In this document: piece after piece, positions 36,066 to 40,035 of the stretch | Layout: each line of letters starts with the position of its first letter | Position numbering within the stretch: the first letter of the stretch is position 1 | From: Escherichia coli | Lineage (GTDB): Bacteria; Pseudomonadota; Gammaproteobacteria; Enterobacterales; Enterobacteriaceae | Length of the DNA: 64,000 nucleotides | Assembly: GCF_003334355.1 (NCBI RefSeq) | Contig: NZ_QOWP01000012.1 | Strand: one strand, 5' to 3' | Translations under genes and position numbers: made by a program | Notes under the pieces: generated by a model | What the model was told of the DNA's origin: nothing | Database searches by the model: none | What the model saw: the letters and a program-made list of their open reading frames with translations, nothing else

Positions 36066-36086
36066 CCTCTCCCCTATGGGGAGAGG
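36066..36086 (+). other. Intercistronic GC-rich stem-loop between glnH and glnP
   Basis: cctctccc-ctatg-gggagagg (8-bp stem) followed by a G-rich tract; lies inside the operon, so more likely an mRNA stabiliser or attenuator than a full terminator. Confidence 0.5.
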
Positions 36087-36170
36087 ATTAGGGTGAGGGG
36101 CGCAAACCCGCTCCGGGGCCATTAATTACCCTGAATTTGATTATTTACACCACGGTAACAGGAACAACAT

Positions 36171-36830: not shown

Positions 36831-37549
36831 TTGAATTTAAAAACGTCTCCAAGCACTTTGGCCCAACCCAGGTGCTGCACAATATCGATTTGAACATTGC
36901 CCAGGGCGAAGTCGTGGTGATTATCGGGCCGTCCGGTTCCGGTAAATCGACCCTGCTGCGCTGCATCAACAAACTGGAAGAAATCACCTCCGGCGATCTG
37001 ATTGTCGATGGCCTGAAGGTTAACGATCCGAAAGTTGACGAGCGCCTGATTCGCCAGGAAGCAGGTATGGTGTTCCAGCAGTTTTACCTCTTCCCGCATC
37101 TGACGGCGCTGGAAAACGTCATGTTTGGCCCGCTACGCGTGCGTGGCGCGAACAAAGAAGAGGCGGAAAAACTGGCACGTGAGCTGCTGGCGAAAGTCGG
37201 TCTGGCAGAACGTGCACATCACTACCCTTCCGAACTTTCTGGTGGTCAACAGCAGCGTGTGGCGATTGCCCGCGCGCTGGCGGTGAAGCCGAAAATGATG
37301 CTGTTTGATGAACCGACTTCCGCTCTTGACCCGGAACTGCGCCATGAAGTGCTGAAGGTTATGCAGGATCTGGCTGAAGAAGGGATGACGATGGTGATCG
37401 TGACCCACGAAATCGGTTTTGCCGAGAAAGTAGCTTCGCGGCTGATCTTTATCGACAAAGGCCGGATTGCGGAAGATGGCAATCCGCAGGTGTTGATCAA
37501 GAACCCGCCGAGCCAGCGCTTGCAGGAATTTTTGCAGCACGTCTCTTAA
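36827..37549 (+). CDS. glnQ: Glutamine ABC transporter ATPase GlnQ
   Basis: 240-aa ORF; Walker A (GPSGSGKST), ABC signature (LSGGQQQRV), Walker B; start overlaps glnP stop by 4 bp. Confidence 0.95.
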
Positions 37550-37560
37550 TAAGACACATT

Positions 37561-37659
37561 GCCTGATGCGCTACGCTTATCAGGCCTACAGGATATCTGG
37601 CAACTTATTAAAATTGCATGAACTTGTAGGACGGATAAGGCGTTCACGCCGCATCCGGC
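37561..37659. repeat. BIME/RIP-like repeat (two inverted REP units around an A/T-rich core) downstream of glnQ
   Basis: gcctgatgcgctacgcttatcaggcctac ... aacttattaaaattgcatgaactt ... gtaggacggataaggcgttcacgccgcatccggc. Confidence 0.8.
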
Positions 37660-37809
37660 AAAAAAGCCCGCACGTTGTCAGCAACCTGCTTAATATCCCT
37701 TCCTCCCTTTCACCCGAAAGGGAGGCACACCAGATTCCTCTCATTTAAAATCGCCCCTCCTCCAGCATCTATACTTATCTTTTTGCTCTATTTTCTCACT
37801 GGAGGAGTC

Positions 37810-40035
37810 ATGCGGTGGATCCTGTTCATCCTCTTCTGCCTGCTGGGCGCACCTGCCCACGCGGTATCCATACCCGGCGTTACAACCACAACGACAACGG
37901 ACTCAACGACTGAACCGGCCCCGGAACCGGATATCGAACAAAAAAAAGCGGCCTATGGCGCACTGGCGGATGTGCTGGATAATGACACCTCGCGTAAAGA
38001 GTTGATCGACCAGTTGCGCACCGTTGCCGCTACGCCCCCTGCTGAACCGGTACCAAAAATAGTGCCGCCGACGCTGGTCGAAGAGCAAACCGTGCTGCAA
38101 AAGGTCACCGAAGTCAGCCGCCATTATGGTGAAGCCCTTTCCGCCCGCTTCGGGCAACTTTATCGCAATATCACCGGCTCCCCGCATAAGCCGTTTAATC
38201 CACAAACCTTCAGCAATGCGCTGACCCATTTTTCAATGTTAGCGGTATTAGTGTTTGGTTTTTACTGGCTGATTCGCCTGTGCGCACTGCCGCTGTATCG
38301 CAAAATGGGTCAGTGGGCGCGGCAAAAAAATCGTGAGCGCAGCAACTGGTTGCAGCTTCCGGCGATGATTATCGGGGCGTTTATTATCGACCTGCTGTTA
38401 CTGGCCCTGACATTATTTGTCGGCCAGGTATTAAGCGACAACCTGAATGCAGGCAGTCGCACCATCGCTTTCCAACAAAGTTTGTTTCTCAACGCCTTTG
38501 CCCTCATTGAATTTTTCAAAGCCGTACTACGCCTGATTTTTTGCCCAAACGTGGCGGAGCTGCGCCCGTTCACGATTCAGGACGAGAGCGCCCGTTACTG
38601 GAGTCGTCGCCTGAGCTGGTTAAGCAGTTTGATAGGTTATGGCCTGATTGTGGCCGTGCCGATTATCTCTAATCAGGTGAATGTACAGATAGGTGCGCTG
38701 GCGAACGTCATCATTATGCTGTGCATGACCGTCTGGGCGTTGTACCTGATCTTTCGTAATAAAAAAGAGATTACCCAGCATTTGCTCAACTTCGCGGAGC
38801 ATTCGCTGGCCTTTTTCAGCCTGTTTATCCGCGCCTTTGCGCTGGTGTGGCACTGGCTGGCAAGCGCCTATTTTATCGTGCTGTTTTTCTTTTCGTTGTT
38901 CGATCCGGGCAACAGCCTGAAATTTATGATGGGTGCAACGGTGCGCAGCCTGGCGATTATTGGTATCGCAGCGTTTGTTTCCGGTATGTTTTCCCGCTGG
39001 CTGGCGAAAACCATCACTCTCTCGCCACATACTCAGCGTAACTATCCGGAGCTGCAAAAACGGTTGAATGGCTGGCTGTCGGCGGCGCTGAAAACGGCGC
39101 GTATTCTGACAGTCTGCGTGGCGGTAATGTTGCTGTTGAGCGCATGGGGATTGTTCGATTTCTGGAACTGGCTGCAAAACGGCGCGGGGCAGAAAACCGT
39201 AGATATCCTGATCCGTATCGCACTCATTCTTTTCTTCTCGGCGGTTGGCTGGACGGTGCTCGCCAGTTTGATCGAAAACCGGCTGGCTTCGGATATTCAT
39301 GGCCGCCCGCTACCCAGCGCCCGCACGCGTACCCTGCTTACGCTGTTTCGTAACGCGCTGGCGGTGATTATCAGTACCATCACCATCATGATTGTGTTGT
39401 CGGAAATCGGCGTCAATATCGCGCCATTGCTGGCAGGTGCCGGGGCATTAGGTCTGGCTATCTCGTTTGGTTCGCAAACGCTGGTGAAAGATATTATCAC
39501 CGGGGTATTTATTCAGTTTGAAAACGGCATGAACACTGGAGATTTGGTGACTATCGGGCCGTTGACCGGCACAGTGGAACGGATGTCGATTCGCTCCGTG
39601 GGCGTACGCCAGGATACCGGGGCGTATCACATCATTCCGTGGTCTTCGATAACCACCTTTGCTAACTTTGTCCGCGGCATTGGTTCGGTGGTGGCAAATT
39701 ATGATGTTGATCGCCATGAAGATGCTGATAAAGCCAATCAGGCACTGAAAGATGCGGTAGCGGAATTAATGGAAAACGAAGAAATTCGCGGGCTGATTAT
39801 TGGTGAACCGAATTTTGCCGGGATTGTCGGCTTAAGCAATACCGCGTTTACACTGCGTGTTTCGTTCACCACGCTGCCACTCAAACAGTGGACGGTACGC
39901 TTTGCCCTCGACAGCCAGGTGAAAAAACATTTCGACCTGGCGGGCGTTCGCGCGCCAGTGCAGACTTATCAGGTGCTGCCTGCTCCGGGCGCGACCCCGG
40001 CTGAACCGTTACCGCCGGGGGAACCAACGCTTTAA
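37810..40035 (+). CDS. ybiO: MscS-family mechanosensitive channel YbiO
   Basis: ORF 37675..40035; start placed at ATG 37810 ([18 protein letters not shown] signal peptide) with ggagg RBS; 741 aa. Confidence 0.92.

Follow-up and report, generated by a model that had tools for sequence, protein, structure and literature searches.

A stable hairpin lies between glnQ and the mechanosensitive channel gene ybiO of Escherichia coli, and the question it raises is which of the two neighboring transcripts, if either, it belongs to. The initial annotation, made from the letters of a 64,000-nucleotide stretch of E. coli DNA (contig NZ_QOWP01000012.1, hereafter the window), offered three readings: the structure could be the processed end of gln mRNA, part of the 5' leader of ybiO, or what remains of a small RNA. 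The first is supported and the other two are not, for reasons given below. The hairpin is an ordinary feature of a known kind, and with a probability of roughly three in four it is the stem-loop at the 3' end of the mRNA for the glutamine transporter (glnHPQ), a former intrinsic terminator without a U-tail, with Rho terminating transcription farther downstream and exonucleases trimming the RNA back. Positions are those of the window, whose + strand is the minus strand of MG1655; the MG1655 coordinate equals 883290 minus the window position.

The hairpin and its surroundings

The genome is K-12-like: in the glnQ-ybiO spacer (37540-37815) it shows 100% identity with both ATCC 8739 and a record of K-12 EMG2, and the gene layout and the 260-nt spacer length are those of MG1655. 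On the + strand, the TAA stop codon of glnQ (37547-37549) is followed by a BIME (37550-37688), composed of two inverted REP units (inverted repeats I1 and I2) with sub-threshold naRNA4/REP matches, then by the hairpin (37702-37725), and finally by the 741-aa coding sequence of ybiO (37810-40035). The stem begins 14 nt past the end of the BIME and ends 84 nt before the ybiO ATG (37810), in agreement with its original placement about 85 bp upstream of the ybiO start and just past the BIME. Its arms, CCTCCCTTTC (37702-37711) and GAAAGGGAGG (37716-37725), form 10 perfect base pairs, 7 of them G-C, around the loop ACCC. Thus the structure first described near ybiO is real and stable, but has a 10-bp stem and a 4-nt loop instead of 9 bp and 7 nt. 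The minimum free energy (MFE) is -17.1 kcal/mol (z = -6.0), and none of 200 dinucleotide shuffles folded equally well.

With respect to the hallmarks of intrinsic terminators, the hairpin has the GC-rich stem (about 5-14 bp) and the short loop, but lacks the T-run: the tail CACACCAG has 0 T in 8 nt. The earlier statement that there is no T-tract on either strand is confirmed by the flanking sequences, CACACCAGA on the + strand and AAGGGATAT on the - strand, and a consensus terminator scan of both strands did not call the hairpin.

The 64-kb window contains 8 distinct perfect hairpins of at least 10 bp with 3-8 nt loops, whereas only 0.5 would be expected by chance under a first-order Markov model of its composition, and the motif of this hairpin has its sole match here even with up to 3 mismatches allowed. 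Of 5426 complete E. coli genomes, 5421 have just one copy of a 121-nt core that includes the hairpin (median, 1 place per genome), as against 9-54 places per genome for the adjoining BIME, and membership of the hairpin in the REP/BIME family was thereby ruled out. An Rfam search of the region returned no family at or above its gathering score, leaving the proposed small-RNA remnant without support. The best matches were sub-threshold: naRNA4 (36.1 bits versus 59.5), which lies on the REP and merely mirrors REP similarity, and ncr952 (22.6 versus 100), a chance match which lies on the hairpin but on the minus strand.

The BIME is a variable part of the spacer. Counting as positive those genomes with at least 80% coverage of the BIME-containing spacer, the K-12-type form occurs in 2231 of 5426 complete E. 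coli genomes (about 41%) and is missing from the remaining 59%. In BIME-less alleles, which comprise the other sampled E. coli and most other genera, the spacer is about 116 nt long and the hairpin follows the glnQ stop codon by 7-8 nt. This short spacer is the ancestral form; the BIME half has no counterpart in any other genus, and the hairpin, found in the sampled BIME-less alleles, is older than the BIME insertion. Both stem arms are invariant among 11 E. coli/Escherichia alleles, in which the loop (A, C or a deletion at one place, C or T at another) and the flanking bases vary.

The BIME-containing insertion, 144 nt in length, is bracketed by a 7-bp direct repeat, CTTAATA (37545-37551 and 37689-37695); at the insertion place, one CTTAAC is found in E. 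coli alleles that lack the BIME. The repeat looks like an insertion-site duplication, yet the 8 nt to its right also differ between the two allele types.

Coding readings of the region were considered as well. A 60-aa open reading frame on the + strand (37566-37748), a 52-aa frame on the - strand and the old 786-aa start of YbiO (TTG at 37675) were all rejected because the three starts fall in the BIME, which most E. coli lack. The 786-aa mis-annotation arose because the hairpin region is free of stop codons and in frame with ybiO. The 741-aa form is supported by a conserved Shine-Dalgarno (SD) sequence and ATG at 37810, and by the point at which protein similarity between genera sets in.

Conservation across the Enterobacteriaceae

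A scan of one genome per species yielded 80 loci with a YbiO relative; 78 spacers were examined, the window included, and 77 were scored for the tail of the hairpin. glnQ lies directly upstream of ybiO in all 77 loci that gave a match for each of the two genes. In 78 of 78 Enterobacteriaceae spacers glnQ is directly followed by a stable hairpin, the sequence of which varies. The distance from its end to CTATACTTA, the -10 element of the ybiO promoter discussed below, is 43-57 nt in most spacers, with outliers at 35 nt and up to 142 nt that are mainly spacers lengthened by repeat insertions. When the stretch of 40-60 nt preceding the promoter was folded and compared with dinucleotide shuffles, the median z-score of the MFE was -3.0 and 63 of 78 loci scored below -2; the few poor scores occur because those hairpins fall outside the fixed slice that was folded.

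Stem sequences are unrelated between genera: CCTCCCTTTC is found in Escherichia and Citrobacter, GCCGGGC in Enterobacter, Lelliottia and Leclercia, CCCCTC in Kosakonia and Atlantibacter, and GGCTCTCCC in Klebsiella and Raoultella. Column-by-column covariation was dropped in favor of the per-locus shuffle z-scores, since stem and loop lengths differ and the MAFFT alignment fits no single consensus structure. Nonetheless, a search for compensatory changes, as the initial annotation had advised, revealed paired arm changes within the Escherichia/Citrobacter/Salmonella clade, next to the invariant arms of the 11 Escherichia alleles. In the C. freundii group one base is gone from each arm (TTTC/GAAA becoming TTC/GAA), in C. 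amalonaticus-like loci T-A is replaced by C-G at the ninth pair, along with a U·G pair, and in S. enterica arizonae the inner stem differs.

The most telling feature is the sequence that follows the stem. At 35 of the 77 scored loci, the first 8 nt past it include at least 5 T, for example GCCCGGCTTTTTTA and GGGGGTTTTTTATT, which are canonical intrinsic terminators; 3-4 T are present at 27 loci, and 2 or fewer at 15. All four Escherichia sequences have 0-1 T after the stem, and at the place where Citrobacter has a short T-run (GGGAGGTTTTTCACCAG) E. coli has GGGAGGCACACCAG; the T-run has been lost in both Escherichia and Salmonella. The comparison of tails leads to the conclusion that E. coli has here a positional ortholog of the intrinsic terminator of glnHPQ from which the U-tract has been lost. 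Judging from the sequences compared, this loss occurred more than once, on the line leading to Escherichia and separately in certain other lineages. The description of the hairpin as not an obvious terminator therefore holds for E. coli, but overlooks that its positional orthologs elsewhere in the Enterobacteriaceae are canonical intrinsic terminators.

Such terminators follow glnQ in Enterobacter, Lelliottia, Leclercia, Atlantibacter and Siccibacter. Like the E. coli hairpin, they lie right behind glnQ, with some 45-50 nt separating them from the -10 box of ybiO; their stems are GC-rich and comparable in size and energy, and the ancestral role presumed for all of them is to end the gln operon and insulate ybiO. 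They differ in that 5-8 of the 8 nt past the stem are T, compared with 0 in the E. coli copy, and the E. coli RNA ends at +4, with published data indicating Rho dependence.

The RNA 3' end and a possible signal for Rho

A curated Term-seq 3' end with 29,295 reads maps to MG1655 845561(-) (Adams et al. 2021, eLife 10:e62438, PMC7815308). This steady-state end corresponds to window position 37729 on the + strand, 4 nt after the stem (GGGAGGCACA^, the caret marking the end), within the sequence ...CCTCCCTTTCACCCGAAAGGGAGGCACA^CCAGATTCCT (Adams et al. 2021, PMC7815308). It was called in one of three growth conditions, M63 glucose only (sheet M63 0.4), and was classed as 'orphan' (PMC7815308), because the BIME moves the 3' end more than 50 nt away from the glnQ stop codon. 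It is missing from the list of 3' ends in 5' UTRs of Adams et al., which suggests that there is no dRNA-seq transcription start site (TSS) within 200 nt upstream, and that the end belongs to the gln transcript.

The same source (PMC7815308) places a Rho termination region at 845551(-), equivalent to window 37739, on the basis of DirectRNA-seq in LB with and without bicyclomycin, with a Rho score of 4.04 and a significance of 5.6e-9; the score rests on 800-nt read windows and low counts (83/58 versus 45/127). The bicyclomycin signal is ambiguous, in that the ybiO promoter lies about 40 nt downstream, inside the read window, and its induction would mimic read-through. The mapped end and the Rho peak agree with the proposal that the hairpin marks a processed gln 3' end.

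These data also bear on the reading in which the hairpin is a weak, non-canonical intrinsic terminator and 37729 its primary product, possibly with help from NusA or NusG. The very stable stem, the sharp 3' end adjoining it and the positional orthology to canonical terminators would fit such a terminator, but the tail offers no T in 8 nt and the terminator scan is silent. The geometry points the same way: the RNA ends at +4 and not at the +7 to +9, inside a U-run, that is usual for intrinsic termination, and the bicyclomycin-sensitive peak stands 10 nt further on, in what are genome-wide and not locus-specific data. Weak intrinsic termination is for these reasons considered unlikely.

Downstream of the stem, the untranslated + strand tract at 37726-37803, which contains the Rho-region position 37739, has 26 C and 6 G in 78 nt (33% C, 8% G). 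The excess of C over G, 20, ranks at the 99.8th percentile among the 78-nt segments of the window. A Rho-utilization site would be expected to have such a composition, and the tract is a candidate for one. It is tempting to view the C-rich tract as a specific response to loss of the U-tract, but this idea was rejected: C is at 41-44% and G at 12-14% in all three T-tract classes, and the skew is not an adaptation to Rho dependence because it is equally strong where the full T-tract is kept. Rather, the C-over-G skew is a conserved property of the ybiO promoter region and may serve the promoter.

Together, these elements suggest the following sequence of events. Transcripts of glnHPQ would run through the BIME, where present, and the hairpin; without a U-tract, RNA polymerase would mostly not be released there. 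Rho would load on the unstructured, C-rich and G-poor untranslated RNA and terminate transcription farther downstream. 3'-to-5' exonucleases would then trim the RNA to the base of the hairpin, producing the precise end 4 nt after the stem, and the retained hairpin would shield gln mRNA from further decay.

The classical case of such processing is that of trp mRNA, which Rho terminates at trp t' and which is then shortened as far as the hairpin of trp t. A whole class of Rho-dependent transcripts was described that end right after stable stem-loops without U-rich tails, followed by enrichment of C over G (Dar & Sorek 2018, PMC6061677), and such stem-loops protect the transcripts from PNPase and RNase II (Dar & Sorek 2018, PMC6061677). 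The gln locus shares with this class the stable U-less stem-loop, the precise 3' end (here at +4) and the downstream C-over-G bias, along with a bicyclomycin-sensitive signal that is ambiguous in the way described above. It departs from the class in two respects: trimming and Rho loading are deduced at this locus, and the C-rich tract doubles as the promoter of the next gene, being equally C-rich where a functional U-tract is present.

REP/BIME elements likewise act as 3' stabilizers of mRNA, as between malE and malF. The gln hairpin resembles them as a stable extragenic structure at the end of an ABC-transporter message, predicted to be able to block 3' exonucleases, and in K-12 a BIME lies directly upstream of it; it differs in being single-copy, in not being a REP and in predating the BIME.

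The possibility that the BIME and the hairpin together (about 37554-37729) constitute a trans-acting small RNA must also be weighed, given that 3'UTR-derived sRNAs are common in enterobacteria. A RACE 5' end at 845736, considered below, and the Term-seq 3' end at 845561 do bracket a highly structured segment of 176 nt. However, the U-tail for Hfq binding is missing, most E. coli and all other genera lack the BIME half, and the Rfam matches are sub-threshold, naRNA4 reflecting REP similarity only. There is also no conserved single-stranded seed, the sequence adjacent to the hairpin being variable. The existence of an sRNA of this kind is most improbable.

A promoter downstream of the hairpin

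The element CTATACTTA (37769-37777, +), 44 nt downstream of the stem, is invariant in 78 of 78 spacers. With C at -13 followed by TATACT, it fits the consensus of sigma-S extended -10 elements, and it is assigned to the ybiO promoter. ybiO is RpoS-dependent and induced by NaCl, and sigma70/S promoters have been reported no more than 135 bp from its start codon (Edwards et al. 2012, PMC3508906). From the position of the -10 box, the ybiO TSS should lie at about 37781-37785, which would place the hairpin at about -80 to -57 and therefore outside ybiO mRNA. A 5'-leader element has to lie within the transcript of its gene; with the start predicted from the -10 box, the hairpin is upstream of the ybiO promoter instead.

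The polypyrimidine tract CCCCTCCTCC (37754-37763) had been noted as atypical. It is indeed present, but to judge by its location it is the C-rich spacer between the -35 and -10 regions of the ybiO promoter, the composition of which is conserved. This spacer (37751-37769 and the orthologous positions of loci L001-L080) is C-rich and G-poor in every genus, its exact sequence not being conserved. It has been suggested that sigma-38 promoters under osmotic induction have special elements in the -35 region (Lee & Gralla 2004 and Rosenthal et al. 2006, both cited in PMC5924526).

Immediately upstream is the block CCAGATTCCTCTCATTTAAAA (37730-37750, +; consensus CCAGATTnnTCyCAwww), presumed to be an upstream element of the ybiO promoter. 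It is better conserved across genera than is the hairpin sequence and occupies about -52 to -32 of the predicted promoter. The block could be a transcription-factor site or UP-like elements of the sigma-S promoter. A YciT ChIP-exo peak has been reported upstream of ybiO (PMC8464067), and an entry for ybiO is absent from the sigma-S ChIP-seq supplement of Peano.

A different start has been in use for ybiO. The high-throughput RACE TSS at 845736 in RegulonDB was the sole ybiO TSS adopted by Reg-Seq, which saw an RNA polymerase (RNAP) site in that construct. The RACE TSS corresponds to window 37554, 5 nt after the glnQ stop codon, in the BIME and upstream of the hairpin; lying in a strain-variable BIME, it cannot be the conserved ybiO start. 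The window mutagenized in Reg-Seq (-115 to +45) took in the end of glnQ and the first REP but did not reach CTATACTTA, and the 'ybiO' RNAP site is probably not the native sigma-S promoter. Reporters for ybiO and annotation of its promoter are consequently best anchored on CTATACTTA, the RACE TSS at 845736 and the 786-aa start being poor anchors on account of the strain-variable BIME.

A sigma-54 promoter over the 3' arm of the hairpin (GGCAC-N-TTCC) was tried as a candidate and rejected, the match being weak and GGCAC varying within E. coli (GGTAC, GGATC).

Access to the ybiO Shine-Dalgarno sequence

An upstream start, at 37554 or at a putative sigma-54 promoter, would place the hairpin in a long ybiO 5' leader, in which the pyrimidine tract might mask the SD sequence. 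The RACE TSS at 845736 and the RNAP site in the Reg-Seq construct are on the side of this reading, as is the possible sigma-54 promoter upstream of the sigma-S one (Edwards et al., PMC3508906). So, too, is a pairing found in K-12: CTCCTCCAG (37757-37765, +), part of the polypyrimidine tract, is a perfect 9-bp complement of CTGGAGGAG (37799-37807) over the ybiO SD. In the fold of K-12 read-through RNA the SD is fully paired (dG -40.4, z -4.8), whereas the short promoter-proximal transcript has no stable structure and its SD is more open.

The pairing does not withstand comparison. The other ten sampled E. coli/Escherichia alleles have CTCCCCCAG, with a mismatch in the middle of the pairing, so the perfect anti-SD is specific to K-12. 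Over 78 loci, the mean unpaired value of the SD is 0.157 in read-through RNA versus 0.24 in short RNA (p = 3e-6), but composition-matched shuffling of the promoter spacer gives 0.162 versus the native 0.157 (p = 0.48), no excess of masking. Hence the masking of the SD is a by-product of pyrimidine-rich composition, and a conserved alternative pairing that controls SD access was not found among the 78 loci.

The remaining evidence against an upstream start accords with this. The sigma-S -10 box downstream of the hairpin is invariant in 78 of 78 spacers, the RACE TSS lies within a BIME missing from 59% of E. coli genomes, and Rfam gives no match. The 3' end at 845561 is not in the 5'-UTR list of Adams et al., as would be expected if no TSS lies within 200 nt upstream. 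A ybiO leader containing the hairpin is accordingly very unlikely, and the 5'-leader role once suggested falls with it, given the location of the -10 box and the shuffle-level masking.

A riboswitch or attenuator in the ybiO leader was also entertained, with arms 1-4 being CCTCC, GGGAGG, CCTCCTCC and GGAGGAG. Attractive in K-12, the idea was rejected because the -10 box is downstream of the hairpin, the anti-SD is K-12-specific, and masking does not exceed the shuffle level.

In IS10 and IS50, a fold-back in read-through transcripts masks the ribosome-binding site. Similarly, K-12 transcripts that enter ybiO from upstream carry a 9-nt anti-SD that is absent from the transcript of ybiO's own promoter; the ybiO pairing differs in being neither conserved within E. 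coli nor in excess of composition, and the likeness is one of resemblance only.

In a more elaborate view, the U-less hairpin and the C-rich tract would separate the glnHPQ operon, regulated by nitrogen, from osmotic/sigma-S-controlled ybiO as a gate that is conditional and depends on Rho. If this were true, limitation of Rho or a very high level of gln transcription would let polymerase enter ybiO, and in K-12 the anti-SD would prevent translation of the read-through messages, making a two-layer insulator that evolved from a plain terminator. Regulation of this type is rated as distinctly improbable.

Probable terminator decay and a second hairpin in the operon

Although the spacer is well studied in E. 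coli, the hairpin had been left unannotated; reading it as the 3'-end stem-loop of glnHPQ mRNA gives it a function, and corrects the idea of a role in ybiO regulation. The orthologous loci form a series that may be of use in itself, from a full intrinsic terminator (Enterobacter) through a short T-run (Citrobacter) to no T-run (Escherichia and Salmonella), with the hairpin always kept. This series illustrates clearly how, in nature, an intrinsic terminator can decay until its hairpin marks the 3' end of a Rho-dependent transcript, and suggests that the stem is kept for protection of the mRNA 3' end even after the capacity for self-termination is lost.

Among ABC transporters, stabilized single-gene messages are common for the binding-protein genes. 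A second U-less hairpin lies in the glnH-glnP spacer (36066-36090), with the structure CCCTCTCCCC-TAT-GGGGAGAGG followed by TAGGGTGAGGGG and a boxC-like look. A Term-seq 3' end at MG1655 847200, equivalent to window 36090, was called a few nucleotides past the glnH-glnP hairpin (sheet M63 0.4; Adams et al., PMC7815308), and probably marks a stabilized glnH-only message. BoxC-like repeats (CCCTCTCCC...GGGAGAGGG...GGGTGAGGG) also occur in the glnQ-ybiO spacer itself in Pseudocitrobacter, Buttiauxella and Enterobacteriaceae bacterium 89 (loci L052, L053, L060, L063 and L079).
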